Part shown: positions 22,790 through 59,357 of the stretch, piece by piece
Layout of the letters: each line of letters opens with the position of its first letter
How positions within the stretch are numbered: the first letter of the stretch is position 1
Assembly: GCA_963422735.1 (NCBI GenBank)
Contig: OY730476.1
Span: 2,752,001 to 2,816,000 of the forward strand
DNA: 64,000 nt
Source: Candidatus Latescibacterota bacterium
GTDB lineage: Bacteria > Latescibacterota > UBA2968 > UBA8231
Direction: 5' to 3'
Program-made: the position numbers and the translations under genes
The notes under the pieces: model-generated
What the model was told of the DNA's origin: nothing
What the model saw: the letters and a program-made list of their open reading frames with translations, nothing else
Databases searched by the model: none

Positions 22790-22834
22790 TTTTATACTGG
22801 ATGATACGGAGGTGCTTCGTAGGTTGTAGGTATG
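22790..22834 (+). promoter_or_regulatory. Element-specific sigma70-like promoter cassette (variant)
   Basis: ttttatactggatg...cttcg-taggtt-gtaggt-ATG, similar to the cassettes at 26721, 38711 and 40178. Confidence 0.5.
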
Positions 22835-23272: not shown

Positions 23273-23289
23273 CATCACCACAGGGGTTG
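23248..23289. terminator. 19-bp-stem hairpin over the HNH stop codon
   Basis: caacccctgtggtggtgtc-tcgt-gacatcaccacaggggttg. Confidence 0.55.
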
Positions 23290-23325
23290 TGGTGCATTAA
23301 AATCTAACCCAAGAAGGATGCAAAT

Positions 23326-23607
23326 ATGAGGTTTTTTCTTCAGAACGATAAAGGGGAGGAGACGAGTATTCACCTAACCCGATATACACACGGGGACGGA
23401 TCCTACCATAGCGCTATTTCCAGACGAGTAGCCCGCCGCCTGCGTAAATTTGCGAAAGGGGGGTGGATTCGGTGGAGCGAGAAGTCAGCATCGAATGGGG
23501 CAATGATTTTGCCCATTCGGGATGATTGGGATGGAGGGACGTGCCCGTGCCCGAGGTGTGTCTGGCTCGATGAGGATACGATCAGAATTCACAGTTATTG
23601 GGAATAG
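23326..23607 (+). CDS. Hypothetical phage protein
   Basis: ATG with upstream AAGGA RBS; 93 aa with CxCxxC. Confidence 0.5.
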   Translation: MRFFLQNDKGEETSIHLTRYTHGDGSYHSAISRRVARRLRKFAKGGWIRWSEKSASNGAMILPIRDDWDGGTCPCPRCVWLDEDTIRIHSYWE

Positions 23608-23644
23608 ATTTCAAACCAATCGAGTCCGCCCTTAAAGAGGCCTT

Positions 23645-23684
23645 AACGGTGGGGCTATCAATTATTGACAGCCCCACCGTTTTG
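23645..23684. terminator. Near-perfect palindrome / intrinsic terminator
   Basis: aacggtggggct-atcaattattgac-agccccaccgtt followed by T residues. Confidence 0.65.
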
Positions 23685-23734
23685 TCGTTAGCTCTATTAA
23701 TCCTCCCCCTCACCATAAACTCTTGGAGGATGTA

Positions 23735-24025
23735 ATGGAAAGTAAGCCGATCAATGATATTTTGGTCAGCCAAGGTCGTATCATGGAGCGGCTAGAGACA
23801 CAGGCCGGAGACATTGAAGAGTTGAAAGAAGATGTCAAGGTGTTGGAGCGTAGCCAGAATGAGGCCTCCATCGTCTTGGGTCGCCTGAAGGACTTGCCTG
23901 AGCAAATAGATGAGATGAAGCGATTCATCTATAAGGTTGGCGGCGGCATTCTGCTGATCGTAGTGCTGTTAGAGTCGTTTGTTGTCCTTCTCGCGCCTAA
24001 TATCCCCGCCATATTGGCAAGCTAA
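23735..24025 (+). CDS. Coiled-coil protein with C-terminal TM helix (XhlA/holin-like architecture)
   Basis: GGAGGA RBS; heptad region then GGGILLIVVLL hydrophobic stretch. Confidence 0.55.
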   Translation: MESKPINDILVSQGRIMERLETQAGDIEELKEDVKVLERSQNEASIVLGRLKDLPEQIDEMKRFIYKVGGGILLIVVLLESFVVLLAPNIPAILAS

Positions 24026-24044
24026 GCCAGCATGACAACCCTTT

Positions 24045-25889
24045 TTATACTCTATCCACCAAATTGATGCCCCGCTCTCGCATCTGCCGGTAGAGGTCGC
24101 TCAGGCTGTTTGCTTCCTGTCTGCTTAGCTCCTCGGCGGCCCCGGTGGCCATGACCGACGCTACCAGCGGGTCGATCTTGCTCTCGCTCGTCGATTTCTT
24201 GAGTGCTCGGTTGTTCTGCGCGTCCGCCATGATCTCGCATCCGAAGCAGGCCCACCGCAGGACCGGGTTCTCGCGCACCCGCAGGCGGCCCGACAGCACG
24301 GCGATCTCGAACTGGTCGATGGAGCGAGGCATCCATAGACGCGGCTTGGGTCGCTCGACCTTGTTGCTGGCTGGCGGCGCGTTGGCCGGTGCGCCCGTGA
24401 AGCCTTGTGCATGGCGCAGCATGTAGAGCACCCCATCCTTGCGCCGCTCTGTCTGATTAGTCCATAGTATGCCGTGTTCGTCAAGGATGCGCTGGAGCTC
24501 GTCGATTCGCCAATGGTCGTACGCGCAGGCTTGCACGTAGCCGGTGGCCATCAGGCCGCGCAGCCACTCCACGACATATGCGAAGTCGATCACCGGCCCG
24601 GGCGTGGCCTCTATATATCCATCCTCAATCCATTTCAGGTACGGCACGTTGTCCTGCATAGCCCGCTGCGTCACGCCGTCCTTGGGCATCCAGCACTTCA
24701 CGTCCAGCCAGTATATTTTGTCGTCTCCATGACCCGCTAGTGTCACGTCCGCCCCGGCGGTCAGGTCAGCCTTCCGACTCAGGTCGAGGGCTAGGTAGCG
24801 CGGGCCGGGCGGTGGGTCCCATGCGTCGTACGGCACGACGCAGGCGTTGAACCGGTCGACGTCCAGCCACGGGTTGAGGGCCTCGGTCCACCGACCAAAG
24901 TTGAGTCGATCGACCAGTGCCCGCTTGGACGGGTTGCCCTCGGCGGCGGACACCTCGCTCCGCAGGTACTCAAGCGTCGGCGTCCAAGGCATGGACGGGT
25001 TGGCTTGCTCCCAGCACGACTCGTCGGCGAAAGGGTCGCTGTCGTCGTCCGTGTCGGCGATGAAGGCAAAGTAGTCGTCTCGCTCAATCACGCCGGTGGC
25101 TATCTGCTTGGCGATCTGATCTTCGATGTAGCAGCAGGACTGGCGGGACGAGCCGGCGTTGGTCAGGATGATAGTCAGGGGTTGCAGGCGGTCCTTGGCT
25201 CCCATAGACAGAAACTCGAGCATGGCGTCGCTGGCCGCCTCGTGGTACTCGTCTATGATCGTCATGGACGCATTAGGGCCTGACACCCCCTCGCCCATGC
25301 TGTCGCTGGACACCCGCATGAACTGCCCTCGGCTCTGGTTGTGTATGATCCTGTTGGGCGTAGAGCCGCCGAGGATGGTGAAGTGCTCATTCAGGTGGGT
25401 ATGATTGATCATCTCGGCCGCTTGAACGAATAGGGGGGCTGTCTGCGCGAAGGTGCGGGCGGCAACATAGACCTCGGCTAGGTGCTCGCGGTCGATATGT
25501 AGATGGGCTATGGCGAGCCCGGCGACCAGCGGCGACTTACCGCTCCCCTTCCCTGTCCTCAGGTAGGCCCGCCGGAACCGGCGCACCCAGATAGGGTGTC
25601 CGTCCGCTGGATGAGATTGGCAGGTGCGCCACCCGTATAGGCAGCCCACGAAGAACTGCTGCCAAGGTAGCAAGCGGAAGGGCTGTCCCGCGGATACGCC
25701 CTTGACGAAGCGCAGGTTGGACTCGAAGAATCGCCCGGCCGCCGCCGCCGCCTTGCGGTCGAAGACGAAGGTAGCGCTCTGTCTGTCGAGGTCGTCGAGA
25801 TGGCGCTGGCAGGAGGCGACCAGCGAGTTGCCAGCGGGTCGGTCGCCGCGCACCACGGACTGAGCATACTGAGTTACGGCGTCGGCCAT
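24045..25889 (-). CDS. Terminase large subunit (HK97-type)
   Basis: CQRHLDDL, LLPWQQF, GKGSGKS Walker A, IIDEYH Walker B, LDLSRKADLT, KIDPLVA. Confidence 0.93.
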   Translation of the reverse strand: MADAVTQYAQSVVRGDRPAGNSLVASCQRHLDDLDRQSATFVFDRKAAAAAGRFFESNLRFVKGVSAGQPFRLLPWQQFFVGCLYGWRTCQSHPADGHPIWVRRFRRAYLRTGKGSGKSPLVAGLAIAHLHIDREHLAEVYVAARTFAQTAPLFVQAAEMINHTHLNEHFTILGGSTPNRIIHNQSRGQFMRVSSDSMGEGVSGPNASMTIIDEYHEAASDAMLEFLSMGAKDRLQPLTIILTNAGSSRQSCCYIEDQIAKQIATGVIERDDYFAFIADTDDDSDPFADESCWEQANPSMPWTPTLEYLRSEVSAAEGNPSKRALVDRLNFGRWTEALNPWLDVDRFNACVVPYDAWDPPPGPRYLALDLSRKADLTAGADVTLAGHGDDKIYWLDVKCWMPKDGVTQRAMQDNVPYLKWIEDGYIEATPGPVIDFAYVVEWLRGLMATGYVQACAYDHWRIDELQRILDEHGILWTNQTERRKDGVLYMLRHAQGFTGAPANAPPASNKVERPKPRLWMPRSIDQFEIAVLSGRLRVRENPVLRWACFGCEIMADAQNNRALKKSTSESKIDPLVASVMATGAAEELSRQEANSLSDLYRQMRERGINLVDRV

Positions 25890-25904
25890 ACTACATGAGC
25901 GTAT

Positions 25905-26342
25905 TCAGGCCCCCACGTCGTCCGGCAGCTCGGGGTCTGTATGGATGTCGTCGTATGCCGGGTCTTTGGGTGTGATGTGGTCGGCGGCCATCCGCTCAAT
26001 CTCTTGGGCGACGCCCACCATACGGTCGCGGCGGTCAGACGCATGCTTCAAGGCCGGCGTCATCATCGCCACCATCTTGGCGACCAGCATGGGATCCTCT
26101 TCTCCACTCTCAACCCTCTGGGTCACCACGCGCATGGCGCTGCGGGCGTCCGACAGGAACGCTTCGAGGATGTCGTCGTCGTCTTTGGGCGGCGGTGCCG
26201 CCGCCCGGGCAGCCTCGATCCACTTGCGGACTGTCACCGGCGCAACGCCGGCCGCCTTGGCGATGGCGTCGGTTCGCTTGCCCTGTGCGGCCATGATGAG
26301 CACTTGGGCGCGGATGCTGTCGGGCTTGGCTACGGTTGGCAT
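25905..26342 (-). CDS. HTH protein, probable terminase small subunit
   Basis: N-terminal HTH (AIAKAAGVAPVTVRKWI); between HNH and terL; start at MPTVAK inferred. Confidence 0.6.
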   Translation of the reverse strand: MPTVAKPDSIRAQVLIMAAQGKRTDAIAKAAGVAPVTVRKWIEAARAAAPPPKDDDDILEAFLSDARSAMRVVTQRVESGEEDPMLVAKMVAMMTPALKHASDRRDRMVGVAQEIERMAADHITPKDPAYDDIHTDPELPDDVGA

Positions 26343-26620
26343 TGGTTGCACGGAACAGCCCTTGGGACACCGTGAACACACGGCATGGAGTGCTTGCGTA
26401 TGGTGCCCAAGTCGAGTGCTGTCTTGGCCTCGTGGTGCTCGGAGCAGAGCGGCTGCACGTTGTCCCGCGCCATGATCTCGCCGCCCTTGTAGCGAGGGAC
26501 GATATGGTCTAGTTCAGTCGCCGGCACGGTTCGACCTTCGGCCTCGCACTGGCAGCACAAGGGCTGCTCGGCGAGGACCCGACGCCGAAATCTCCGATAT
26601 CGTCGATGGGATAATTGCAT
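26330..26620 (-). CDS. Packaging-associated HNH endonuclease
   Basis: PLCCQCEAEG, ATELDHIVP, NVQPLCSEHHEAKT; upstream of terminase. Confidence 0.88.
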   Translation of the reverse strand: MQLSHRRYRRFRRRVLAEQPLCCQCEAEGRTVPATELDHIVPRYKGGEIMARDNVQPLCSEHHEAKTALDLGTIRKHSMPCVHGVPRAVPCNQCQP

Positions 26621-26720
26621 TACAGCAATGTAGGGAAAATATCATCCCGCAAAAAATCTTTTATTCCCTCACGATTTCCCTAATATGTTCGTTTCGATGT
26701 CCTACCCCCCCTTTTTGTAT

Positions 26721-26767
26721 TTTTACACTTGACACAGGGTATTCTCCATTAGTATGTTATATTTATG
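26721..26767 (+). promoter_or_regulatory. Promoter cassette TTTTACAC-TTGACA...TATGTT
   Basis: ttttacacttgacacagggtattctccattagtatgttatatttATG. Confidence 0.65.
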
Positions 26768-26790
26768 ATCTTAAACCGAGGAGATTAAGA

Positions 26791-27396
26791 ATGGGTGGAG
26801 TTCCCAACACACTGAATGGCCTCTCGCCATATGACTGCGTCTCTGCGTTGCAGAAGCACATTCGGCGCAGCGAGGAGACGCAAGCCTATCTGGTTGCCTG
26901 CGAGATGCTAAACTCATCAGGGAACCTTCCTCAGTGGATGCTGGGGAGGCTGTTAGTCATCAGCCACGAAGACATTGACGCGGTGGCCAGCCCGCATGTC
27001 GTCCCGTTTGTGGCTGCGTCGGTAGCCCAAGCTACCGAATGGGTTCGCAAGAAGAAGAAAGGCGAGGCGGCACTGGCCGTAGCCAACGCCATCCGCGTCC
27101 TATGCCACGCCAAGAAGAGCCGGGTGGCCGACCACTGGGCGATGATCTGGTATGAAAGGAACGCTCAGGGCGCACGTATACCGGAGATACCGGACTACGC
27201 CTACGACATGCACACCCGGCGGGGCAAGGAGATGGGGCGAGGGCTAGACCACTTCTACGAGGAGGCGGCCAAGCTCTTCGACGTCGACGGTACGGAGGTG
27301 TCCCCCGACCCGTGGCGCGACGAGGCCCGACAGGCCGACACGGAGGCCGCCAACCCTCCATCCCTTTTTCCACCCCAGAAGGAGTCAGACCAATGA
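26791..27396 (+). CDS. Stand-alone RarA/MgsA C-terminal-like domain protein
   Basis: SALQKHIRRS, LLVISHEDI, IPDYAYDMHT; no Walker motifs. Confidence 0.7.
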   Translation: MGGVPNTLNGLSPYDCVSALQKHIRRSEETQAYLVACEMLNSSGNLPQWMLGRLLVISHEDIDAVASPHVVPFVAASVAQATEWVRKKKKGEAALAVANAIRVLCHAKKSRVADHWAMIWYERNAQGARIPEIPDYAYDMHTRRGKEMGRGLDHFYEEAAKLFDVDGTEVSPDPWRDEARQADTEAANPPSLFPPQKESDQ

Positions 27397-28037
27397 AAAC
27401 TTGCTTGGTCGTTGGGGCGCACCCCGACGACATGGAGCTCGGATGCTGCGCCACCGTCCTCAGCCTGATCGAGCGGGAGTGGGATGTGTGGTCGTTGGCC
27501 TTGGCGGACAACACGTTGACAGTCGTCGGTCAGGGCTTCGATGACTGTCATTTTCAGGCGGAGCGGCAGGAGGCCGCTCAGGTGCTGGGCATCCCGCAGG
27601 ATCGCTTGCTGACGCACCGCTTCCCGGTGCGCGACTTCCCAGCACACCGGCAGGATATTCTGGAGCACCTATACAAGATGGTGCGCGACATGGAGCCAGA
27701 GATGGTTTTGTGTCCCTCGTCCACCGACATCAATCAGGATCACTTGGTCGTCTATGAGGAGACCGTCCGGGCCTGCACGGGCATACCCTGCTCGATATTT
27801 GGGTACTACCTGCCGTGGAACAACCGGCAGGTTGGCCTCACCTTCTTCTCCTCTTTCACCGAGAAGTACATGTCCTTGAAGGAGGAGGCGCTGGCTTGCT
27901 ATCGCTCCCAGGCCCACCGGCCATACATGCGGCCCGGGGCCGCCCGGGCTTTTGCGCAAGCGATGGGCACGTGCAGCTATGTCCTCCCGCTGGCCGAGCC
28001 GTTGGAGCCCATCCGGTGCATGTTGTGTGCATCATAG
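27393..28037 (+). CDS. PIG-L/LmbE family deacetylase, copy A
   Basis: VVGAHPDDMELG, ERQEA, DINQDH, YRSQ motifs. Confidence 0.88.
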   Translation: MKTCLVVGAHPDDMELGCCATVLSLIEREWDVWSLALADNTLTVVGQGFDDCHFQAERQEAAQVLGIPQDRLLTHRFPVRDFPAHRQDILEHLYKMVRDMEPEMVLCPSSTDINQDHLVVYEETVRACTGIPCSIFGYYLPWNNRQVGLTFFSSFTEKYMSLKEEALACYRSQAHRPYMRPGAARAFAQAMGTCSYVLPLAEPLEPIRCMLCAS

Positions 28038-28176: not shown

Positions 28177-28803
28177 ATGATGCACACGATAGCACTTGTT
28201 TCTCAGAAAGGCGGTAGCGGCAAGACGACGCTGGCGGTGGCCCTCGCGGTTGCGCACGAGCTGGCGGGCGGTTCTTCGGTGGTGATCGATCTAGACCCGC
28301 AAGGGTCGGCGGGGGTGTGGAGCGATCTTCGGGGCGACCTTACACCGGTAGTAGTAGCGGCTCACCCGCCTAGACTAGCACGGTCGCTCAATGCAGCCCG
28401 TACCGCGGGGGCGTCGCTAGCGGTAATCGACATGGCCCCTCGGGAAGCGGGCGGTGCGGTAGAAGCGGCCCGGTGTTCGGATTTGGTACTGGTGCCGTGC
28501 CGGCCGTCGGCGGTGGACTTGGCAGCCATCCCAGCCAGCCTAGCCGTGGCCCAGCTGGCGGAGACGGCGGTGGCCGTGGTACTGAACGCGGTTCCTCCCC
28601 GCGGGGATTTGGCGGCGCAAGCAGTGGAAGCCGTTCAAGGCTTCGGGGCGATAGCGACTCCAGTGACGATCGGGACGCGGGTGGCGCATGTTAGGGCGTT
28701 CACATCTGGGAGGACGGCCCAAGAGACCGAACCCCGCTCCGTGGCGGCTGCCGAGGTTGAAGCCCTGTACCAATGGATTTTCACGAAAGACTGGAGACTA
28801 TGA
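28177..28803 (+). CDS. parA: ParA partition ATPase (plasmid type Ib), copy A
   Basis: SQKGGSGKTT, IDLDPQGS; short, without N-terminal HTH. Confidence 0.9.
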   Translation: MMHTIALVSQKGGSGKTTLAVALAVAHELAGGSSVVIDLDPQGSAGVWSDLRGDLTPVVVAAHPPRLARSLNAARTAGASLAVIDMAPREAGGAVEAARCSDLVLVPCRPSAVDLAAIPASLAVAQLAETAVAVVLNAVPPRGDLAAQAVEAVQGFGAIATPVTIGTRVAHVRAFTSGRTAQETEPRSVAAAEVEALYQWIFTKDWRL

Positions 28804-30099: not shown

Positions 30100-30333
30100 G
30101 TGATGTACGAAGTGGACCATCCCGAGCACAAGGCCACGCTCAGGCGGTTGGGCCGTTTGCTTAAAAAGTCACTGCCCAACGAGAGCATGAACTTCACGCT
30201 ATTTCTGTTTACCGAAAACCCAAACACCTTGTTCTATCTGTCCTCCGTTGAGCGTTCCAGCGGGCTGGCGGCCATCAAAGAGTGGGTAGCCCGGCAGGAA
30301 AGTACGGGAGAGGGTGGCACTCAAGGCTCTTGA
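30100..30333 (+). CDS. Hypothetical phage protein
   Basis: GAGGAG RBS; FTLFLF...YLSSVERS; 77 aa. Confidence 0.55.
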   Translation: MMYEVDHPEHKATLRRLGRLLKKSLPNESMNFTLFLFTENPNTLFYLSSVERSSGLAAIKEWVARQESTGEGGTQGS

Positions 30334-31009
30334 CCTATTCTGTGGCGGCGGTGGCGCGGCCCTCGGCCTTCTTCAGGCTGGCTTCGAGGAGGTGGTGGGC
30401 ATTGACCACCATCGACGAAACGCCGCCGTCTATCCGGGCCGCTTCGTGTGTGCCGACGCGCTCCATCCGCCCGTCTCGCTGGCCGACTTCGACTTGATTT
30501 GGGCGTCGCCGCCCTGCCAGCGGTTCAGCGCGGGTACGTTACAACGAGGCGGCCCTACGGCGGCGGCACGCCATCCCGATCTAATCCCCCAGACCCGCGC
30601 CCTGTTGGCTGGCCATCCGTTCACGATCATCGAGAATGTGCCCCGTGCGCCGATTCGCGCCGACGTGGTGTTGACCGGGCCGATGGTGGGGCTGGAACGC
30701 ATTCAGCGGCAGCGGCACTTCGAGTTGTCGTTCTGGCCCGGGCTCATGCCGCCGCGCGTGAGCGTCCCTCGCTGGATGTGGCAAGCAGGCCGCGCGGTAA
30801 CGGTGACGACCTCGCTGTCGGCATCGAGCCATTACTATCCGCGTCGCCGCGCTGGGCTTCCGGGTCATGTGCCTATCAAGGAGGCGCGGGCGGTGATGGG
30901 CATTACGACGCCGATGACGGCCCGGCAGGTCGGCGAGGCGGTGCCCCCGCCCTATGCCGCGCTGTTGGGTCAACGGGCACGGGCGATTATGGAGGCGAAG
31001 GTGCGATGA
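30314..31009 (+). CDS. DNA (cytosine-5) methyltransferase, short phage type
   Basis: LDLFCGGGG, WASPPCQ, IENV, EAVPP. Confidence 0.88.
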   Translation: MALKALDLFCGGGGAALGLLQAGFEEVVGIDHHRRNAAVYPGRFVCADALHPPVSLADFDLIWASPPCQRFSAGTLQRGGPTAAARHPDLIPQTRALLAGHPFTIIENVPRAPIRADVVLTGPMVGLERIQRQRHFELSFWPGLMPPRVSVPRWMWQAGRAVTVTTSLSASSHYYPRRRAGLPGHVPIKEARAVMGITTPMTARQVGEAVPPPYAALLGQRARAIMEAKVR

Positions 31010-32276: not shown

Positions 32277-32914
32277 GGATTCTGTGCAATGGGGCGTATG
32301 CCCCCATCATGGCGTTGGCTCGCCATTCCGACTATGCGTCTCGACTGGGATGGCTGAACACGCCGCGCACAAAACTTTGTTGGAGCCGGTTGTTGGCTTC
32401 GTCTTTGCCCATCGCCGCCGATAACTCGGCCTATTCGGCATGGTGTCCGCGGCGGTTTAGGCATTTTGTCCGGTCGATTCCCGAAGGCCGGCTTTTGTGG
32501 TTGGCCGTGCCCGATGTGGTCGGCTCATCTGCCGGCACACAGGCGCGGTTCGACTACTGGTATCCTCAACTGAGTCAGCACCCACTGGCCTACGTAGCAC
32601 AAGACCACAGCGAAAGCGATGCCACCATCCCCTGGAATTTAATCGTCGCCCTCTTTATTGGGGGGAGTACGCAATGGAAGTGATCCCAAGCGGTGTACGA
32701 TCTCATCCAAGAAGCCAAAAGGCGCGACAAGATCGTACACATGGGACGCGTTAACAGCCATCGGCGACTGACATGGGCTTATCGCTGTGGATGTGATTCC
32801 GTCGATGGGACCGGGTTCTCTCAATTTTCTCGCAACCATCTCAAGGCCGGGGTCGAGCATCTACTCTCCTTAGAAAGGCAACAGTCCCTGTTCCCCCCTA
32901 GGAGGAGAGCATGA
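32273..32914 (+). pseudogene. TGT/DpdA-like TIM-barrel phage protein interrupted by an in-frame TGA (32681-32683)
   Basis: ADNSAY, VPDVVG, VAQD, FIGGSTQWK*SQ...VHMGRVNS..R...DSVDGT all in one frame. Confidence 0.6.
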
Positions 32915-33003
32915 AGAAATTCAAAGAGGTGTTGTCGATTCTCTTTCTGCTGTACAGCCTAGTCGTCATCGCCCATCATCTGGCGCGTTTCCTGTCCCCG
33001 TGA
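32911..33003 (+). CDS. 30-aa hydrophobic peptide
   Basis: GGAGGAG RBS; MKKFKEVLSILFLLYSLVVIAHHLARFLSP; intact in copy B (61740..61832). Confidence 0.5.
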   Translation: MKKFKEVLSILFLLYSLVVIAHHLARFLSP

Positions 33004-33048
33004 GACGCTGCTAGATGATGGACAGGATGACTGTCTCCACTGGGGCTG

Positions 33049-34023
33049 CTACGCGCTCCGCAGGATGAGCCGCTTGGCGAAGCGGACGGTCTCGGCGATC
33101 CCTCCCTCTAGCGACACCTTGGGCTCGTAGCCCAAGAGCGTCCGGGCACAGGTCAGGTCGGGGCAGCGTCGCTTGGGAGCATCCTCGTGTGGGTTAGGTT
33201 CATGTTCGATCCTGCTCTTGGACTGGGTGATACGTAGGACGGACTCGGCCACATCGAGGATCGTATGTTCTGCATCGTTGCCGATGTTGATGGGCTTTAC
33301 TATGGGCGAGCGCAGTAGGGCGAGTATACCGGCCACTATGTCGGATACATAGCACGGGCTGCGCGTCTGCCGACCGTCTCCCTGCACGGTCAGGGGCCAA
33401 CCGTGCAGGGCCTGCTCAACGAAGGTGGGCATCATGCGGCCGTCGTCCGACTTCATGCGAGGCCCGTAGGCGTTGAAGATGCGGACGATGCGGGTGTCCA
33501 GCCCATGCTTGCGATGGTAGGTCATCGTCAGTGCTTCGGCATATCGCTTGGCCTCGGCATAGACGCCCCGGACGCTGGTATGATCGATGTTGCCAGTGTA
33601 GGTCTCTGGCTGAGGATGAACCAGCGGGTCGCCGTACACCTCGCTGGTAGAGGCCATCAGGAAGGTAGCCCCCTCGTACCGGGCTAGTTCGAGGGCCGCT
33701 TTGGTACCTTGGGCTCCAGCTTCCAGTATCTCCATCGCCATCGACTCTACGAGCGTCGGCGTGGAAGGGCTGGCCAGATGAAGCACATAGTCGATAGAGC
33801 CAGACCCAACCTCTTTCATTAGTCTCGCCAGCAGGTGTTCTCCCTTCGACACGTTGGTCTGCAAGAACCGGAACGACGGGTTGTCCCACAGCAAATGGGA
33901 CAGGTTGTCGCCAGTGGATGTCAGGAGGCTGTCGAGGGCTATCACCTCATGCCTCTCAGCTAAAAGGGCGTCGCATAGGTGCGACCCTAAGAACCCGGCA
34001 CCGCCGGTGATGATTGTCCTCAT
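33049..34023 (-). CDS. NAD-dependent epimerase/dehydratase, UDP-glucuronate decarboxylase (UXS)-like, copy A
   Basis: TGGAGFLGSHL, STSEVYGDP..HPQPETY, YAEAKR, RIFNAYGPRM. Confidence 0.9.
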   Translation of the reverse strand: MRTIITGGAGFLGSHLCDALLAERHEVIALDSLLTSTGDNLSHLLWDNPSFRFLQTNVSKGEHLLARLMKEVGSGSIDYVLHLASPSTPTLVESMAMEILEAGAQGTKAALELARYEGATFLMASTSEVYGDPLVHPQPETYTGNIDHTSVRGVYAEAKRYAEALTMTYHRKHGLDTRIVRIFNAYGPRMKSDDGRMMPTFVEQALHGWPLTVQGDGRQTRSPCYVSDIVAGILALLRSPIVKPINIGNDAEHTILDVAESVLRITQSKSRIEHEPNPHEDAPKRRCPDLTCARTLLGYEPKVSLEGGIAETVRFAKRLILRSA

Positions 34024-34033
34024 GTGTCCTGTG

Positions 34034-34372
34034 CTAGTATGTCCTCTTGTAATGGGCCAGCAGTCGCTCGCGCCGGGCCAGCAACTTCTCTAGGGCGTTC
34101 ACGGCCTCGATGTCGCCTTGGGCCACCTTGGGCTGTATACTAGTCAGGGCCTCGTTGATGCGGGCTAGGTCGATGGCCCGTTGCACTTTCTGTTCGTCGA
34201 ACCGCATACCTGCCTCGGCGATCAGTTCCTCGGCGACGACCTCGGCGTCGACTTTCAGCACCTTGACGGACGTGCGGATGCCCTGCCGCTTCATCGCCTC
34301 GGCGATCTGTCTCATGGAGTAGCCTCGTATGATACAATCCTTGACGTAGGCTTGTCGCTCCGCTGCTTTCAT
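34034..34372 (-). CDS. HTH protein, terminase-small-subunit-like, copy A
   Basis: GYSMRQIAEAM HTH; DLARI...GDIEA...LLARRERLL pattern. Confidence 0.55.
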   Translation of the reverse strand: MKAAERQAYVKDCIIRGYSMRQIAEAMKRQGIRTSVKVLKVDAEVVAEELIAEAGMRFDEQKVQRAIDLARINEALTSIQPKVAQGDIEAVNALEKLLARRERLLAHYKRTY

Positions 34373-35163
34373 TGCAGTCGTGGGTTGATCCGGTTCACTG
34401 CTATGTTGCAGGAGCGACCCGTCAGTCCAATGGCATGAGCCGCAGCGGACCGCTTGAAGGACACGGCCCGGCCCCATTTGACCTTGAGCCGTTCTTCGCC
34501 CTGATGGTACTCGTCCCCCGACACCAGCCCGGTGTTGCCGCCCTTATTCCCTGAGTCCAATGCACACGTGAACAGGACGCGCTGGTCGTACAGCATAGCC
34601 CGATCCTCGCGCAGTATCTCCAAGAAATGATCTACGTCCTCGCGGCCTCCGTCCGGGTAGTGCTGTAAGACCTTGGCGTTGCCCCGTATTATTCGGAGCC
34701 CACCGCCCATGGTACCCACCGCCTTGAAGGGTTTTACGATATTGTCTGTCGAGCCGAAGATCCATGCGGTGGGCATGTCGCCGCAGCCCCCCCACGTCAG
34801 GTCGAGGTCTTGCAGGACCCGCACCATGTTCTCGATGTAGTTCAGGGTCTCTGTGGGGCTGGCACTCAGGCAATTGTTGCCGTCGGCCATGATCTCGACC
34901 CCCTGCAGGTCGTCATCGACAAAGGCCAGCGCGTCCTCGCTAAAATCCTCTTTCATCTTATTCATCACGCCGGCGTATCCATGGACGGGTACATGGGTGG
35001 CCAGTAGGTCGTCTGGCACCGCGGACGCATAGTCGTCGCGCTCGCGCTCATCCACATACCAAGTGGCCGTGGGCAGCAGCTCGCGTACGGATGGCACGTT
35101 CTCTGATCGCTTGCGCGACGGTATGATGAGGCGATAGTCCAGCGTCGGGTCCGGCGTCAGCAT
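34369..35163 (-). CDS. GT-A fold glycosyltransferase (TET-associated/GREB1-like phage type), copy A
   Basis: IIPSRKR, VDERERDDY, FVDDD (DxD), REDVD, NKGGN motifs. Confidence 0.7.
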   Translation of the reverse strand: MLTPDPTLDYRLIIPSRKRSENVPSVRELLPTATWYVDERERDDYASAVPDDLLATHVPVHGYAGVMNKMKEDFSEDALAFVDDDLQGVEIMADGNNCLSASPTETLNYIENMVRVLQDLDLTWGGCGDMPTAWIFGSTDNIVKPFKAVGTMGGGLRIIRGNAKVLQHYPDGGREDVDHFLEILREDRAMLYDQRVLFTCALDSGNKGGNTGLVSGDEYHQGEERLKVKWGRAVSFKRSAAAHAIGLTGRSCNIAVNRINPRLQ

Positions 35164-35825
35164 AGCAGGTTCAGCAGCTCTTTTCCGTGGATCGCCCGCA
35201 TGACGGGCGTGTTGGGGCGATAGGTCGGTACACTCAGACCCACCGCCTCGCACAGGGCGCGGTACTCGCGCCGGTTGGCCGACTGAATGACCAGAAAGTC
35301 GTAGTGCTCCCCGGTCTTCAGCTCCAGATCTCTTTCTGCATCGGTCTTGCTGTGGAGTCCGCCATCCTCGCTCGCCGTTGGGGGTGCATGCTGCTTGATA
35401 TGCTCTTGGATATCTTCCAAGATCGGATTGCTTTGAATGCTTCGGCCAATGCGTTCAACTATGCGCTGAAGCTTGTCCTTGGAGAAGCGAGCTGTGTCAC
35501 GGGTAGCGTCCAGCGTGGCCAGCAGCAGGTCGGCCTCCGCCTCGTTCAGGTCGGTCGTCAGCACGGGCACGTCGGCCTCGGGGTCGAGGTTGGCCCGCAG
35601 GTGGCCGTCGAGGATGCGCCAGCCGTCGCCGTGCGGATAGACCAAGATCGCTTGGGCCCAGCCTATCTGCTCTATTAGTTGGCGCACCTGCTCGACCTGT
35701 CGGCCGGGATGGAGGCGTATGTTGTCCGGGTGGGGTGCCAAGCTCTTGGCCGGCACGGTCATCAGGCCCGTGATTCGATTGGGCCAATCTGCTGTAAAAT
35801 CGTCTGGGCTTCGATGAATCTCCAC
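35157..35825 (-). CDS. ParB/Srx N-terminal domain protein 2
   Basis: LAPHPDNIRLH, GWAQAILV, ILDGHLR. Confidence 0.82.
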   Translation of the reverse strand: MEIHRSPDDFTADWPNRITGLMTVPAKSLAPHPDNIRLHPGRQVEQVRQLIEQIGWAQAILVYPHGDGWRILDGHLRANLDPEADVPVLTTDLNEAEADLLLATLDATRDTARFSKDKLQRIVERIGRSIQSNPILEDIQEHIKQHAPPTASEDGGLHSKTDAERDLELKTGEHYDFLVIQSANRREYRALCEAVGLSVPTYRPNTPVMRAIHGKELLNLLC

Positions 35826-36391
35826 CTTTTATTTCCCTTTCGGTCGATGTTCAGTATCTCGGATAGCTTCGTCGTGGTGCTCACGTCGGAAACGAAGACG
35901 ATCACCACATCGTCGTAGATGCCCTCGTAGTCCGCAATGGTGTCGCGCTGGTTGCGTTCCTTGGCTGACTCTGAGATGGGCTTGGTTGGCACGGGCGGAG
36001 GCTCGGCCTTGCGTCCAATGTCTGCTATGAGCCGACGCAGGGAGGCGTTGGGTCCGTCCACCCTCGGCAACAGCCGCTGCCAGGCGTCCAAGTCGACGTC
36101 CACATGGAGGCCGCTGGCGTCCAGCGTGGCCAGCAGCAGGTCGGCCTCCGCCTCGTTCAGGTCGGTCGTCAGCACGGGCACGTCGGCCTCGGGGTCGAGG
36201 TTGGCCCGCAGGTGGCCGTCGAGGATGCGCCAGCCGTCGCCGTGCGGATAGACCAAGATCGGCTTGACCCAGCCCACCTCGTCCATCAGGCCGCGCACCT
36301 GCTCGACCTGATGGGGTGGATGGAGGCGTATGTTGTCCGGGTGGGGTGCCAAGCTCTTGGCCGGCACGGTCGTCAGGCCCGTGATTCGATT
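35506..36391. repeat. 275-bp near-identical duplication of the ParB domain (35506-35780 and 36117-36391)
   Basis: Direct comparison, offset 611 bp. Confidence 0.92.
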
Positions 36392-36403
36392 CTTGAGGTC
36401 CAC
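35762..36403 (-). CDS. ParB/Srx N-terminal domain protein 1
   Basis: LAPHPDNIRLH, GWVKPILV, ILDGHLR. Confidence 0.82.
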   Translation of the reverse strand: MDLKNRITGLTTVPAKSLAPHPDNIRLHPPHQVEQVRGLMDEVGWVKPILVYPHGDGWRILDGHLRANLDPEADVPVLTTDLNEAEADLLLATLDASGLHVDVDLDAWQRLLPRVDGPNASLRRLIADIGRKAEPPPVPTKPISESAKERNQRDTIADYEGIYDDVVIVFVSDVSTTTKLSEILNIDRKGNKRWRFIEAQTILQQIGPIESRA

Positions 36404-37116
36404 TCTTGTCCCCAGGGCGTTGACGAGGAGGACAGCTTGAGCATCTGCACCGTGCTAGCCATCCCGATGTTGTATAGGGCGTCCAGTATGCCGAGTCCAG
36501 GGAGCCACTCCCACTGCTGCTGGTCGTAAGGCCATGAGGTGAACCGGGAGCACCTCAGGTCTAGGCCCGCTTGCTGAAACACGAATGGGTTGAGGTAGTC
36601 TTTGGCTCCCGACCCGCTCAGGTAGGTCGATCCGCCTACGGCTTGTACGGCATCCACCAGTCGCTCGTTGGGGCTGTCGCGGAGCGGTTCGCCTAAGTTC
36701 GAGGAACGCACGATCTCCAAGCTCAGGCCCATGCACTCAGCCATGTGGATAATCAGTCCCGTGTTCAGGTCGGCCAGCCGGGATCTCTTGAGGAGGCCGT
36801 AGGCCAACGGGCGGTAGAAGGGTGCTTTGCCATAGCAGGCTTGCAGGGTGCGCCGGTGCTTGTTGTCCCATCCATCCCGCACGATCTCCACATCGCGGAT
36901 CGCTTGGAGCCTGCGTCCGCGGGTGCGTACCGGCACGGTCAGCCATTGCGGTTCGCCATGCGTCCCCCGGATAAGTACGCGGTTGGTGTAGTTGTTCTTG
37001 CTGTACTGTATGTCGTCCAAAAGCACCAACACATCCGACTGAAAGACTTTTTGCCAGAAGCCGATCCACGGCAGGTACGTTGGCTCGTGACAGCAAACCA
37101 CTTTTTGCAGGCTCAT
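36373..37116 (-). CDS. WbqC family protein
   Basis: HEPTYLPWIGFWQK, LDDIQY, NRVLI, WLTVPV, YGKAPFY, YLSGSGAKDYL, ILDALYN. Confidence 0.88.
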   Translation of the reverse strand: MSLQKVVCCHEPTYLPWIGFWQKVFQSDVLVLLDDIQYSKNNYTNRVLIRGTHGEPQWLTVPVRTRGRRLQAIRDVEIVRDGWDNKHRRTLQACYGKAPFYRPLAYGLLKRSRLADLNTGLIIHMAECMGLSLEIVRSSNLGEPLRDSPNERLVDAVQAVGGSTYLSGSGAKDYLNPFVFQQAGLDLRCSRFTSWPYDQQQWEWLPGLGILDALYNIGMASTVQMLKLSSSSTPWGQEWTSRIESRA

Positions 37117-37175
37117 GGGTACGAATTCGCCTAGTCTCTTAACTCCCGATAATATCCCTTATAGGGAGTGCCAGC

Positions 37176-38312
37176 TCATCGGTATAGTCCGGTGATGGCA
37201 TCCACCACGCGGGACACATCATCATCGCTCATACCCGGGTGAATGGGCAGGTTGACCAGCATGCGGTAGACTTTTCGTGCATTGTGAAAATCGAAGGCAG
37301 CAGGACCCAATAGGCGGCGGTAGTAGGGTTGCATGTTTAGCGGCTTCCACAAGACGCCAGCCCCGATATGAAGGGTTTTCAGTCTATTCAGCACATCAGC
37401 GCGGGTGACGTCCGAGCGAGGGTTGATCCTGAGCGGATAGAGATGCCACGCATGGCGTCTGTGGTCTACCATTTCCGGTATGTACAGGTCGTGGATGTCC
37501 CTGAACGCACTGTTGTAGCACTGGGCTATGTGCGTCCTGTGCTCGATGGAGGCGTCCAGCCGACGGAGTTGGTGAATACCCAGCGCGGCCTGCAGGTCTG
37601 TCATGTTGTACTTGTAGCCCAGTTCCTCCACGTCGTAATCCCAGTTATGCTCGCGGGACCATGTCCTGCCGTGCATAGACAGCCTGCGCACCCGATCAAT
37701 TTTCTCCTTGTCCCCTGATGCTATCATGCCGCCGTCCCCCGTCGTCATGGACTTGGTGGCATAGAAGCTGAAGCATGTGAAGTCGCTGCCTAGGCCTCCT
37801 ACCCTCCTCCCTTCATACTCGGCCCCGACCGCATGGGCGGCGTCCTCAATGACCGCTAGCTGGTGTTTGTCGGCCATCTTGAGGATGGCGTCCATGCTGC
37901 ACACTTGGCCCCCGTAATGCATGACGATGATCGCCTTGGTTCGGTAGCTGATCTGCTGCTCAATATGCCTTGCGCTGATGTTCAAGGTGTGGAAGTTGCA
38001 GTCGACGAAGACGGGCGTGGCTCCGACATAGCGCACGGCGTGAGCCGTGGCGGCAAAGGTCAGGACCGGCACGATCACCTCGTCGCCGGGGCCGACCCCC
38101 GAGGCCAGCAGGGACAGGTGCAGGGCGGCTGTCCCTGAGCTGACGCCGACGATGTAGTCGGCTTGACAGTAGGCTGCAAACGCCTGCTCGAACTGCTCCG
38201 TCTTCGGACCTCTGGTGATCCAGCCCGACTCCAGCACGTCGATCAACTCTTGCTTTTCCTCGGGGCCGAAGGATGGAGGGGCGAAAGGAATGGGTCGGGT
38301 GCTGTGCTGCAT
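37176..38312 (-). CDS. DegT/DnrJ/EryC1/StrS sugar aminotransferase
   Basis: SSGTAALHL, IEDAAHAVG, FSFYATKSMTTGDGG (PLP lysine), GYKYNMTDLQAALG. Confidence 0.93.
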   Translation of the reverse strand: MQHSTRPIPFAPPSFGPEEKQELIDVLESGWITRGPKTEQFEQAFAAYCQADYIVGVSSGTAALHLSLLASGVGPGDEVIVPVLTFAATAHAVRYVGATPVFVDCNFHTLNISARHIEQQISYRTKAIIVMHYGGQVCSMDAILKMADKHQLAVIEDAAHAVGAEYEGRRVGGLGSDFTCFSFYATKSMTTGDGGMIASGDKEKIDRVRRLSMHGRTWSREHNWDYDVEELGYKYNMTDLQAALGIHQLRRLDASIEHRTHIAQCYNSAFRDIHDLYIPEMVDHRRHAWHLYPLRINPRSDVTRADVLNRLKTLHIGAGVLWKPLNMQPYYRRLLGPAAFDFHNARKVYRMLVNLPIHPGMSDDDVSRVVDAITGLYR

Positions 38313-38348
38313 GGATGTAAGGTAGGCCGCTTCGCTTGTACCGTCAAT

Positions 38349-38588
38349 ATACACACACTAATGGGTGTTATTTTTAGTCGATTTAGTCGTCCTTCCTTTT
38401 CAGTTCAAAAAAGACCCAATCGTCGTAAGAGGCCGCAAACGGCCTTTTCTGGCTAGTTTAGTCCGATCTTATATCCATACATACCTAGTACTAAGGAAGA
38501 CGATTTCAATATCTAGGCCCGCTCTCGCCCTTTTCCACAGCCTCAGACGATTCCCCTTCCCCTACGCCTTTCGGGCACAGGCTGTCTC
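38349..38588. repeat. ~240-bp non-coding direct repeat, copy 1
   Basis: Matches 43774-43998 apart from a few substitutions and one ~15-bp indel. Confidence 0.93.
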
Positions 38589-40749: not shown

Positions 40750-41847
40750 ATGACACTCGCCGAGCGCATAAAGGAGATCGTGGGAGATCGCGGCTTCCGC
40801 TGGTCGCGCTCCTACGAGCACCAGTACAAGCAGATGCCCAGCCAGTGGCGGTCCAAGCTGCGGTCAATGGGCTTGATCGCCCGGCTGGATGACGACGAGG
40901 CCGTCCGGTCGGACGTGGTGGTCGAGGCCATCGGGCTGTCCGACGAGGACGACCTGCTTCGGGCTATAGCCGACCGCGAGCGGCTGCTGTCTGAGGACCA
41001 CGAGGAGATGCCGATGGACTACACGGACGACGAGGCCGCCTTTGGCTCGCTGGAGGTGCATCCGGCCCTTGCCTGCCTGCCGGTTGGCATGGATCTGACG
41101 GACTCGATCGAGGCCGATGGCCTAGCCCAGCCCATTGTCTTGGACGCTCAGATTCGCATCGTCGATGGTCGCTCACGGTTGGCCGCTTGCTTGGCGACAC
41201 AGACGCCCGTGCGATGGGTCTCCTTGGCTGACATTGCGCCGGGCATGGACCCGAGCGTGTATGTGATCATGTCCAACTGCGGTCCCCGGCGGTCGCTGAC
41301 AGCCAAAGAGAAGGCGGTCGCTGTCGCTCGCATCGTGCGCTCCGTGCGCAGCGCACAGGTCGTCTCTTTGGCGCGAGCGAGCGAGGTCAACAGGATGTAT
41401 GTCGAGTACGCCTTGAGCATCATGCGAAGCGATGAGGCAGACCTCATCGCCGCCCTCGACAGCGACTCGACGCCGCTCTACAAGCTGTACCACGAGCTGC
41501 GTGAACGCATCCGCCAGCGGGAGCAAGCCCGCGCCGACAAGCTGCTCGATGCGTGGATGAAGATCTACCAGCCCCATATCCCGATGGACCGCTGGCTGCC
41601 TGCCAGAGGCCAGTCCACCACGGACACCCTCTCGGCGACGGGCTTGTGCTTGTGGCGCAAGGCCGAGGAGGATAGGCCGTCGGGGTACGGGGAGTTGGTA
41701 GTCGGAGACGTGGAGCTGGCCGAGGCAGATAGGCCGTTGGAGGTCCCACTGGAGGAGTGGCCCCGCGACGCACTAATACAAGAAGTTCGCCATCTCCGGG
41801 CCCTTTTGGACTCGGCGGGCATCCCCCACCATCATCACAAGGAGTAG
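40750..41847 (+). CDS. ParB-like domain protein
   Basis: SIEADGLAQPIVL...IVDGRSRLAAC, SN...RRSLT. Confidence 0.7.
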   Translation: MTLAERIKEIVGDRGFRWSRSYEHQYKQMPSQWRSKLRSMGLIARLDDDEAVRSDVVVEAIGLSDEDDLLRAIADRERLLSEDHEEMPMDYTDDEAAFGSLEVHPALACLPVGMDLTDSIEADGLAQPIVLDAQIRIVDGRSRLAACLATQTPVRWVSLADIAPGMDPSVYVIMSNCGPRRSLTAKEKAVAVARIVRSVRSAQVVSLARASEVNRMYVEYALSIMRSDEADLIAALDSDSTPLYKLYHELRERIRQREQARADKLLDAWMKIYQPHIPMDRWLPARGQSTTDTLSATGLCLWRKAEEDRPSGYGELVVGDVELAEADRPLEVPLEEWPRDALIQEVRHLRALLDSAGIPHHHHKE

Positions 41848-41853: not shown

Positions 41854-42135
41854 GTGAACGAAATCCCTAGGGGCAAGAAAGACATCCGGGTGGGGCGATC
41901 CAAGCCTGGCCGCTACGACAAGTCCCAGTGGGGAGGCTTTCGCCGCCTCGCTTGCGCGGTGATCATCCGTGCGGTCTTTGACCTGAGCAACGAGCAGGAG
42001 CGGGCCTCGGCTCGTTGCTTCTTGTTGGACGACTGCAACCCGTGGGCTGAGGCCAGCGAGATCGCCGACATCCACGAGCGGCTAGCGGCCATCGTCCGCG
42101 AGAGCGACCTACTACTAGAGAGGGATGAGACATGA
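41854..42135 (+). CDS. Hypothetical phage protein (possible regulator)
   Basis: LACAVIIRAVFDL...ARCFL pattern; operon spacing. Confidence 0.5.
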   Translation: MNEIPRGKKDIRVGRSKPGRYDKSQWGGFRRLACAVIIRAVFDLSNEQERASARCFLLDDCNPWAEASEIADIHERLAAIVRESDLLLERDET

Positions 42136-42752
42136 AGATCGGTTCGCACTACGACGTCCCGCAGGTACGGGCCATCTGGCGGGCCACCGTCCCGCGCTGG
42201 CTGCCGGTGCTCGGCCCGCTGCACATGGACGAGGAGTTGAATTTTGCTCATTGGCATTGGCACATCGATCAGCGGTTTCTGCCGACCCCCATCTACCGCC
42301 AGTGCCTTAGCGAGACGAACCCCCCATCTCCCCATTACTTATACAACTTTCCGATCATGGTAGGCCTCGTTGTTCCTCTCGGCCGTCGCACCGTCAACGA
42401 CGAGACGGGCTACATCGTCGGCGTCAATCCCAAGTGGCATTCGGCGGAGTATGAGCGCACCGTCTCCGACTATCTGCGGTCGCTCCCGCGGGAGACTTGG
42501 CTCCGCGTGAGCCGTATGACCTACAAGAGGCCCTTCGAGCGCTGCGAAGCTCACGCCTCGCTGCGGTCAAAGCTGGCAGTCACCCACCGCGGTGCGACGC
42601 TTAACCTGCGTCGCACCGTTTGCCCACACCGAGGCGCAGACCTGTCCGGCATCGAGCCGGTGGACGGCGTGATCACCTGCCCACTGCACGGAATGCAGTT
42701 CTGCGCTCGAACCGGAAAGGCAATCCACCCAACCACAGGAAGGAGGGCATGA
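42132..42752 (+). CDS. Rieske [2Fe-2S] domain protein
   Basis: CPHRGADL...ITCPLHGMQF; His-rich N-terminal region. Confidence 0.8.
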   Translation: MKIGSHYDVPQVRAIWRATVPRWLPVLGPLHMDEELNFAHWHWHIDQRFLPTPIYRQCLSETNPPSPHYLYNFPIMVGLVVPLGRRTVNDETGYIVGVNPKWHSAEYERTVSDYLRSLPRETWLRVSRMTYKRPFERCEAHASLRSKLAVTHRGATLNLRRTVCPHRGADLSGIEPVDGVITCPLHGMQFCARTGKAIHPTTGRRA

Positions 42753-43773: not shown

Positions 43774-43998
43774 ATACACACACTAATAGGTGTTATTTTT
43801 AGTCGATCTATTCGTCCTTCCTTTTCAGTTCAAAAAAGACCCAATCGTCGTAAGAGGCCGCAAACGGCCTTTTCTCGCTAGTTTAGTCCGATCTTATATC
43901 CATACATACCTAGTACTAAGGAAGACGTCCGCTCTCGCCCTTTTCAACAGCCTAAGACGATTCCCCTTCCCCTACTCCTTTCGGGCACAGGCTGTCTC
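43774..43998. repeat. ~225-bp non-coding direct repeat, copy 2
   Basis: Matches 38349-38588. Confidence 0.93.
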
Positions 43999-45163: not shown

Positions 45164-45456
45164 TCGGCCGGCTCCTCCGCGGTGGCAAGTTCGTCCAGTG
45201 CGGTCTGCAAGGGAGTGGTCGTATCGAGGAGGGCTTGCCTTTCGAGCTGGCCGCGCTCGACCTCCTCCCGTGCGTTCTTCGCACAGCAGGTGAAACATTC
45301 GGCTTTCTGCGGGTTGGTGTCTTTGGCCGCGGCGGCCTTCTTAGTCCAAAAATCAGCCTCCTCCTCTTTCTCTTGGATATAGTTCGTCCAAGTTTGGACT
45401 AACTCGTTTTGTTGAGTCAGTGCCCCTTGCAGTCGTTGCTGAATAGATTGAGACAT
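45160..45456 (-). CDS. Hypothetical coiled-coil protein
   Basis: AAGGGAG RBS; downstream of the fibre ORF. Confidence 0.55.
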   Translation of the reverse strand: MSQSIQQRLQGALTQQNELVQTWTNYIQEKEEEADFWTKKAAAAKDTNPQKAECFTCCAKNAREEVERGQLERQALLDTTTPLQTALDELATAEEPAE

Positions 45457-45495
45457 GATCGTCTCCCTTCTGGGGGTAAACGTTGAGATAGTTGA

Positions 45496-46662
<1,167 letters not shown>

Positions 46663-59264: not shown

Positions 59265-59357
59265 TAAAAGATGCATCATAATGTGCATGGTATCATATAG
59301 CCAAAAGGAGTCTCTCCGTAAGATGTGTTTTGCTCCGAAAACTATCGGACTCGACCC

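Follow-up and report, generated by a model that had tools for sequence, protein, structure and literature searches.

A ParB-like gene paired with a TAGT-like glycosyltransferase gene in a prophage operon that also carries putative amino-sugar genes

A prophage of Candidatus Latescibacterota bacterium carries a compact operon in which a gene for a soluble glycosyltransferase (GT), related by sequence profile to the TAGT family of DNA-sugar transferases, stands next to genes for ParB-like proteins and for putative amino-sugar synthesis. The operon lies in a 64,000-nucleotide stretch of contig OY730476.1 (GenBank assembly GCA_963422735.1, positions 2,752,001 to 2,816,000, forward strand), here called the window, and positions below are those of the window unless a locus is named. 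The ParB-GT core pair is conserved in other phage loci, and the amino-sugar set is unique to the window element. We tentatively favor a reading in which the operon directs ParB-assisted glycosylation of DNA with a pentose or 4-amino-pentose derived from UDP-glucuronate (UDP-GlcA), although that reading is slightly more apt to fail than to hold.

Operon, glycosyltransferase and ParB-like partner

Seven open reading frames (ORFs) are densely packed on the - strand between 33049 and 38354. Neighboring ORFs overlap by 1 to 31 bp or are separated by gaps of 10 to 59 bp, and the gene order and coordinates of an earlier preliminary description were borne out by Pfam, PHROG and PDB matches, as was its account of tight packing. 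The ORFs are as follows, with lengths in amino acids (aa).

37176 to 38354 (GTG start, 392 aa) or to 38312 (ATG start, 378 aa), - strand: DegT/ArnB-like pyridoxal phosphate (PLP) sugar aminotransferase; PF01041, E 6e-127
36373 to 37116, - strand: WbqC-family protein, 247 aa; PF08889, E 1.6e-53
35762 to 36403, - strand: ParB-like protein 1, with a ParB/Srx N-terminal domain and a divergent C-terminal domain; PHROG ParB families, 1.2e-6 and weaker
35157 to 35825, - strand: ParB-like protein 2 (likely ATG start at 35762), with a ParB/Srx N-terminal domain and a conserved C-terminal domain; PHROG ParB, 2.1e-8
34369 to 35163, - strand: soluble TAGT-like glycosyltransferase, putatively of the GT-A type, 264 aa, with a DDD motif; phrog_842, E 1.6e-9, full length
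34034 to 34372, - strand: small helical protein, 112 aa, possibly DNA-binding; phrog_645, E 1.2e-6
33049 to 34023, - strand: UXS-type short-chain dehydrogenase/reductase (SDR), UDP-glucuronate decarboxylase-like, 324 aa; human UXS1 (PDB), 2e-71; PF01370 (Epimerase), E 6e-46

By sequence, the GT groups with the superfamily of TAGT and T6 ggt DNA-sugar transferases and not with GT2 or O-antigen enzymes. It aligns end to end with phrog_842, the family of the T6 enzyme, which is annotated "beta-glucosyl-HMC-alpha-glucosyltransferase." A HMMER search of 1.84 billion representative sequences at E up to 1e-3 gave 333 clusters of relatives. When 67 relatives were aligned, 57 matched PF20691 (TAGT) and 63 matched phrog_842, whereas a single one matched GT2 (PF00535). 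Moreover, the profile of the GT family aligned with T6 ggt in hhalign at 87.9% probability (E 3.3e-6) over 56 columns spanning the DDD/DxD region, and T6 ggt aligned with one family member (P0122) over 213 residues (E 1.6e-6), a link that is among the assignments resting on weak E-values. Within the acidic motif, D84 does not vary across the 67 sequences, and conservation is at least 90% at both D83 and D85. The preliminary description had named the comparison of TAGT and O-antigen enzymes as a check, and because of the PF20691 and phrog_842 counts and the T6 ggt alignments, the GT falls on the TAGT side. T6 ggt is itself a TAGT that, according to the available text of PMC13390438, adds a second glucose to glucosyl-5-hydroxymethylcytosine (5hmC) in DNA.

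Close relatives of the GT are few. A word-based homologue search with the window GT returned the protein itself and one 58% relative, and that relative and a 67% homologue of the small protein each lie on a 4251-bp contig. No close relatives were found among genome contigs and metagenome contigs, and the contexts of the family members P0122 and P0115 had no match among viral contigs. Longer or fused forms of the GT were not found, which is weak evidence. Against cultured phages, tblastn with the window GT gave no match and tblastn with a viral member of the family hit 3 Microbacterium phage records only, while blastn of the whole operon gave short UXS and DegT matches only.

The two genes upstream of the GT encode proteins assigned to ParB by PHROG families at 1e-6 to 2e-8 and, for ParB-like protein 2, by the PDB entry for Spo0J at 2e-4 over residues 15 to 103, so that the assignments rest on weak E-values. 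Neither protein matched a Pfam family or a helix-turn-helix (HTH) family, and both are short and have no recognizable HTH or other DNA-binding domain. The two genes have 276 nt in common at 93% identity. ParB-like protein 1 falls in family F1 of the ORF clustering described next and also in alignment A6. In general, GT-linked partners combine a ParB/Srx N-terminal domain with a conserved C-terminal domain that is common to the phage homologues.

The ParB-GT pair recurs. We collected 20 viral contigs with relatives of the GT, added Microbacterium phage Onika and the window for a total of 22 loci, and clustered their ORFs. A ParB-like gene is directly upstream of the GT gene at 21 of 22 loci, the exception (L008) being a locus that begins at the GT, and an MgsA_C-like gene (family F2) is present at 19 of 22. 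These counts overstate independence, because the 20 viral loci include many that nearly duplicate one another (L011 with L013, and L019 with L020 and L022, are near-identical) or belong to one syntenic lineage. The ParB stop codon and the GT start codon frequently overlap in this set. A separate scan of species genomes, seeded with ParB, gave five loci (Bradyrhizobium, Propylenella, an alphaproteobacterium, a Myxococcota and a Planctomycetota), and the GT adjoins ParB at 4/5 of them and an MgsA_C-like gene is present at 5/5. In Onika, the order is DNA-binding protein, ParB-like protein, hypothetical protein, GT, UDP-glucose-dehydrogenase-like protein and AAA-ATPase. The Onika GT aligned with the window-family profile at 99.4% hhalign probability over 226 columns, and the protein annotated as an AAA-ATPase is the homologue of the MgsA_C-like protein.

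What lies between the GT and the MgsA_C-like gene is variable and includes sulfotransferase-like genes (two families, at 6 and 7 loci), SDR genes (L005) and a dehydrogenase-like gene (Onika). The two sulfotransferase-like families are small and unrelated to each other, and it is their N-terminal motifs that are sulfotransferase-like. They stand directly downstream of the GT at 13 of the 20 viral loci, and a Bradyrhizobium prophage has one there as well.

L003 8768 to 9460, L010 6186 to 6833, L015 2216 to 2842 and L021 1899 to 2561, with homologues, and L029 9509 to 10129: small families downstream of the GT

Sulfotransferase Pfam matches of these families were subthreshold (E about 0.02, none at E 0.01) and there was no PDB match; the motifs hint at sulfated glycans in the sister phages. 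We note that at L005 the ORF at 7011 to 7454 has an N-terminal segment that, read by eye, is HNH-like in place of the ParB domain, followed by the same conserved C-terminal domain. That fusion may be another DNA-directed module. We also note that Amidoligase_2 and GGACT/AIG2-like genes recur a few kilobases from the ParB-GT pair at several viral loci (L011 10623 to 12523 and homologues) and at the Bradyrhizobium locus.

Sugar-pathway genes and the small protein

The SDR is best described as UXS-type. Its best solved relative is human UXS1 (residues 2 to 318), and the next family, at 7e-31, is about 40 orders of magnitude behind. The segments STSEVYG and Y-x3-K, which are SDR catalytic residues, align with UXS1. 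The ArnA model matched at 1e-15, against 2e-71 for UXS1. The SDR is below every NCBIfam equivalog cutoff, and its assignment follows from close full-length similarity to a characterized UXS.

The DegT protein has ArnB as its best solved relative in the PDB (7e-78), with perosamine synthetase close at 6e-74. It is below all NCBIfam equivalog cutoffs, the ArnB model NF008658 scoring 320 bits where 631 are required. With a UXS-type SDR and a DegT protein that has ArnB as its nearest solved relative, a route from UDP-GlcA through a 4-keto-pentose to a 4-amino-pentose, much as the preliminary description had it, is plausible. The UDP-glucose-dehydrogenase-like gene that follows the GT in Onika would fit donors derived from UDP-GlcA.

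WbqC may be a glycyl transferase, as has been proposed, and the family is known from O-antigen clusters. It had no significant PDB match, and no paper on WbqC enzymology surfaced among those judged by title. Two WbqC matches are present genome-wide, one in each prophage copy. The preliminary description also included a PIG-L deacetylase gene at 27393, which was confirmed by PF02585 (E 7.8e-15) and which is tied to the operon by its location in the same element alone.

The small protein had been called terS-like, a label that the matches do not support. It matched phrog_645 ("Rnase E") only, with one 67% homologue, and had no terS-family match and no significant Pfam or PDB match. It is about 8 kb from TerL, and a separate HTH_23 gene precedes TerL directly.

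Candidate functions and known systems

How the operon might act is best framed by its GT and the partner of that GT. We suggest that phage DNA, once replicated, receives a sugar from the GT, and that the ParB-like protein loads this enzyme onto double-stranded DNA (dsDNA) or activates it there, in the way that ParB serves phage thymine dioxygenases. The UXS-type SDR would convert UDP-glucuronate to UDP-4-keto-pentose or UDP-xylose, and the ArnB-like DegT would aminate the 4-keto sugar. The amine may then be N-acylated by WbqC and, more speculatively, freed of its acyl group by PIG-L once the sugar has been transferred, as happens in the Arn pathway. DNA would thus come to carry a pentose or a cationic 4-amino-pentose that blocks restriction. 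A DNA target had been proposed in the preliminary description together with attachment during packaging and an anti-CRISPR role, and all three may apply.

A DNA target is supported by the TAGT-type GT, the conserved ParB-GT pair, published precedent for ParB and GT genes, and the donor chemistry; that no operon protein has a clear membrane helix also speaks for it. In the available text of O'Toole et al. (PNAS 2026, PMC13229309), a ParB without a DNA-binding domain activates a phage DNA dioxygenase (5mYOX) on dsDNA, and GTs, ParBs and terminases are the commonest neighbors of phage 5mYOX genes. The claim in the preliminary description that ParB, GT and terminase neighborhoods accompany phage base-modification genes agrees with that text. 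Moreover, Pyle et al. (bioRxiv 10.1101/2023.12.21.572611) report that phage GTs, in partnership with an epimerase, put hexose (Hex), N-acetylhexosamine (HexNAc), hexuronic acid (HexA) or heptose on 5hmC.

Likeness to these systems is partial. The T2 and T6 ggt enzymes (PF20691/phrog_842) resemble the window GT in being of the same superfamily by profile, about 260 aa, soluble and endowed with an acidic DxD-type motif. T6 ggt, however, lies beside a dCMP hydroxymethylase and extends a glucose already present on 5hmC, whereas no hydroxymethylase was found in the window, the GT partner is ParB and a donor other than UDP-glucose is probable. The clusters of Pyle et al., in the text available, likewise combine a GT-A enzyme with a nucleotide-sugar tailoring enzyme for the donor, joined to a C5-methyltransferase and 5mYOX and with or without an epimerase. 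They too have ParB and terminase neighbors, and copy A of the window element has a C5-methyltransferase; 5mYOX, by contrast, was not found in the window element. The words "aminotransferase" and "amino sugar" do not occur in the text of bioRxiv 10.1101/2023.12.21.572611, contig supplements aside. The ParB proteins of O'Toole et al. are, as far as the available text goes, short and built of a nucleotide-binding domain followed by a C-terminal one, with none for binding DNA, an architecture that the window ParBs may share. They are encoded beside a DNA-modifying enzyme in neighborhoods where AAA and HTH genes are present; that enzyme is 5mYOX, and the partner of the window proteins is a GT.

Microbacterium cluster EC phages (Onika and Quhwah) have a homologous GT, the same gene order and the same MgsA_C-like neighbor as the window, but they are lytic, have an actinobacterial host and carry a dehydrogenase in place of UXS, DegT and WbqC. 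The published account of their cassette (PMC7302621) lists genes only. Finally, the Arn pathway for 4-amino-arabinose (Ara4N) on lipid A has a decarboxylating SDR and an ArnB-like aminotransferase in common with the window, and an Arn-like logic of acylation, transfer and deacylation through WbqC and PIG-L is possible. Arn, however, uses an ArnA-type SDR, whereas the window SDR is UXS-type and all of the operon proteins are soluble. No formyltransferase, GT2-type ArnC, ArnT or flippase was matched among the ORFs scanned.

Phage GT and epimerase clusters acting on 5hmC, and ParB activation of 5mYOX, are already known. The literature searched, supplements aside, yielded no ParB-GT module that lacks a dioxygenase and none linked to an aminotransferase pathway, and the word "glycosyltransferase" does not occur in a survey of the ParB fold (PMC12704722). 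Known sugar hypermodification of phage DNA consists of neutral or acidic sugars on 5hmC, and ParB activation of DNA dioxygenases is a very recent finding. The locus points to a widespread and uncharacterized phage module, made of a ParB-like protein, a TAGT-like GT and an MgsA_C-like protein with no dioxygenase or hydroxymethylase visible, that recruits differing sugar-tailoring enzymes in differing phages. Should DNA prove to be the target, ParB would be seen to assist glycosylation as well as oxidation, the known DNA adducts would come to include amino sugars and perhaps sulfated ones, and a new acceptor chemistry would be implied. Because the module is present in the cultured and easily grown Microbacterium cluster EC phages, it is directly testable.

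A fuller version of the proposal is quite improbable. It holds that glycosylation is ParB guided and independent of dioxygenases, that the C-terminal domain protein of the ParB type clamps the GT to dsDNA, and that an Arn-like pathway of SDR, DegT, WbqC and PIG-L supplies a 4-amino-pentose. The phage DNA would then bear a cationic amino sugar and that of sister phages sulfated or uronic-acid sugars, so that the charge of the DNA glycan would be a tunable antirestriction trait.

Several observations weigh against DNA glycosylation, and some of them concern the acceptor base. Classical phage DNA glycosylation requires 5hmC or 5hmU. The sole match to the TET/JBP family PF12851 in the genome that carries the window had an E of 0.5 and was far outside the window. 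None of 19 related records had a PF12851 match, among them contigs 100% and 93% complete by CheckV and the full Onika record, in a search that had no phage 5mYOX as a positive control. The thymidylate-synthase-like hydroxymethylase family PF00303 was found in 0 of 5 related records, and no match to the oxygenase families PF13640 and PF13532 was found inside the element. With neither TET/JBP nor hydroxymethylase found, it is not apparent where the usual acceptor base would come from. A divergent dioxygenase is possible but is unlikely to have been missed everywhere, because 83 to 95% of 5mYOX contigs carry PF12851 in the available text of O'Toole et al. (PMC13229309).

The GT assignment and the reach of the gene set count on the same side. 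The window GT had no Pfam match of its own at E up to 10, the sole PF20691 match in the whole genome was to an unrelated protein (E 0.49) with the window GT below the model, and none of 75 further genomes from the same bacterial family has the GT family. GREB1, a TAGT-related eukaryotic enzyme, glycosylates a protein. The preliminary description had named joint conservation of the gene set as a test of its proposal, and whereas the ParB-GT pair is conserved, the remainder of the set is not: none of 19 related phage records has DegT, and none of 20 related flanks has WbqC, PIG-L or the small protein, so that the amino-sugar genes could be unrelated cargo. The same 20 flanks lacked matches to ParA (by tblastn), the PAPS-reductase-like gene and the C5-methyltransferase. 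The redundancy of the viral loci and the defective state of both prophage copies, described below, add to the case.

The main rival, which we nevertheless consider unlikely, is that the GT glycosylates a protein, whether of the capsid, the tail or the host or the ParB-like partner itself, with the sugar genes providing the donor and the modification shielding virions or altering adsorption. An enzyme that would form a DNA acceptor was found neither in the genome itself nor in related records, tail genes are retained in the element, and the variable tailoring genes beside the GT (sulfotransferase-like, UDP-glucose-dehydrogenase-like and the SDRs of L005) resemble glycan diversification. Virion glycosylation by phage GTs is, moreover, on record. 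The characterized relative of the GT family acts on a DNA-linked sugar, however, and the partner of the GT has ParB or HNH-like domains that are DNA directed. In addition, the module lies with replication and packaging genes and outside the structural operon, and tblastn with two members of the family found no mycobacteriophage GT.

Alternatively, and with rather low probability, SDR, DegT, WbqC and PIG-L are cargo independent of ParB and GT, or the operon as a whole is in decay and no longer serves a function. The absence of DegT, WbqC and PIG-L from related records and flanks would be expected of cargo. Moreover, copy B lost DegT and the upstream region at its junction with the host and exchanged neighboring genes for an AAA_21 and DUF4276 pair, and head genes were found in neither copy. 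Decay is harder to reconcile with seven ORFs that are all intact and translationally coupled, and with SDR, small protein, GT, ParB and WbqC genes that are intact in both copies at 97 to 100% identity. WbqC, too, occurs nowhere else in the genome, and a relative 58 to 67% identical (4251-bp contig) retains the GT and the small protein.

Lysogenic conversion of the host surface, in which Arn-like Ara4N or a related amino sugar would be placed on lipid A, lipopolysaccharide or capsule, is very improbable. UXS/ArnA-type and ArnB-like enzymes are present, and the occurrence of WbqC in O-antigen clusters fits. None of the seven operon proteins nor PIG-L has a clear membrane helix in 19-residue hydrophobicity windows, however, and the GT is not GT2/ArnC-like, as the lone PF00535 match among its aligned relatives attests. 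No flippase, polymerase, ArnT-like protein or membrane GT family was matched among the ORFs scanned, some small ORFs being outside the scan, as the preliminary description had said of flippase, polymerase and membrane GT. That the ParB-like genes form a partition system with the ParA-like ATPase, unrelated to glycosylation, is barely credible, because although such an ATPase is present, it is 6.4 kb away on the opposite strand, the ParBs are short and without a recognizable HTH domain, and ParB-GT adjacency recurs at loci with no tblastn homologue of the window ParA.

Prophage copies and neighboring features

The window holds two tandem prophage-like copies that are 97 to 99% identical, copy A at 10023 to 38588 and copy B from 43998 to the window end at 64000 and on to about 65400. 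Together they constitute a siphovirus-like and recently duplicated prophage, and both copies are defective. Besides the operon, copy A has genes for TerL, a tape-measure protein, a tail-completion protein, an MgsA_C-like protein, PIG-L, ParA, a PAPS-reductase-like protein and a C5-cytosine methyltransferase. Features outside the operon that bear on the argument are as follows.

24045 to 25889: TerL, copy A
26791 to 27396, + strand: MgsA_C-like protein; PF12002, E 2.1e-7
27393 to 28037, + strand: PIG-L/LmbE-family deacetylase; PF02585, E 7.8e-15; phrog_11796, E 2.3e-16
28177 to 28803: ParA-like ATPase; PF01656, E 6e-12; phrog_164
30314 to 31009, + strand: short C5-cytosine DNA methyltransferase, 231 aa, copy A only; PF00145, E 4.8e-11
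38349 to 38588, strand not applicable: operon upstream region, repeated at 43774 to 43998 with 90.8% identity (self-BLAST)
61878 to 63992, - strand: copy B of SDR, small protein and GT, full length, 99 to 100% protein identity, 99.3% DNA identity

The preliminary description called the operon phage-borne, a term that holds with a reservation: no portal or capsid family was matched in the element, and copy A as well as copy B is impaired. Only 1.4 kb separates TerL from the tail genes (22660 to 24045), and this interval contains a 48-bp direct repeat (23075 to 23167). So short an interval has no space for portal or capsid genes and none was matched, and copy A is therefore defective. Copy B has no TerL block (copy A 22880 to 27298).

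The preliminary description had the GT, HTH (small protein), UXS and deacetylase genes intact in copy B, and for the SDR, small protein and GT this was upheld. By self-BLAST, window 61648 to 64000 equals copy A 32819 to 35171 at 99.3% DNA identity. Past the window end, copy B continues with one ParB gene and an intact WbqC gene and has no DegT gene, because it stops about 80 bp upstream of WbqC at the host chromosome. The host flank there encodes a 433-aa protein, PhyH, peptidase M19, a DegT-like protein and a major facilitator superfamily (MFS) transporter in 30/30 same-genus genomes, and the host match begins at the end of the 433-aa gene. Membership in the operon was considered for PhyH, M19 and the DegT-like gene, which follow copy B on its right, and was rejected, since they are host chromosome.

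At 59325 to 61134 (+ strand), copy B has an AAA_21 ATPase gene (375 aa) and a DUF4276 gene (229 aa) in place of the PAPS-reductase-like and C5-methyltransferase genes, and these look like a swapped-in defense-type pair. The C5-methyltransferase, unusually short in copy A, shows FCGGGG, PPCQ, ENV and QRQR, which we take to be the main C5-methyltransferase motifs, and is reduced to remnants in copy B (61225 to 61585). The repeat of the operon upstream region at 43774 to 43998 precedes another - strand gene, and the repeated region may serve as a promoter.

Other features were also apparent. The ORF at 32336 to 32683 (+ strand) covers positions 19 to 136 of the 212-position family phrog_15826 (unknown function) before an early stop and probably represents a gene cut short where the homology between copies A and B has its edge. 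Between the copies, an ORF of 365 aa at 40750 to 41847 (+ strand) has a weak ParB-nuclease PHROG match, and one of 206 aa at 42132 to 42752 (+ strand) has a C-terminal Rieske [2Fe-2S] match (1.8e-8). The operon sequence (33049 to 38354) is present in public sequencing runs of 7 studies under six coded organism labels, with no RNA run among the runs listed as containing it, and contigs from four of these runs (X2, X7, X9 and X10) span it. Very large Hi-C libraries (X11, X14 and X15) belong to the same samples or studies, and the bacterium may ride along in the sequencing of other organisms. Finally, nested direct repeats with units of about 81 to 156 bp and 90 to 98% identity occupy 45625 to 46614, where they overlap - strand ORFs at 45417 to 46364 and 45496 to 46590 beside the 1653-aa structural gene of copy B (46663 to 51624).

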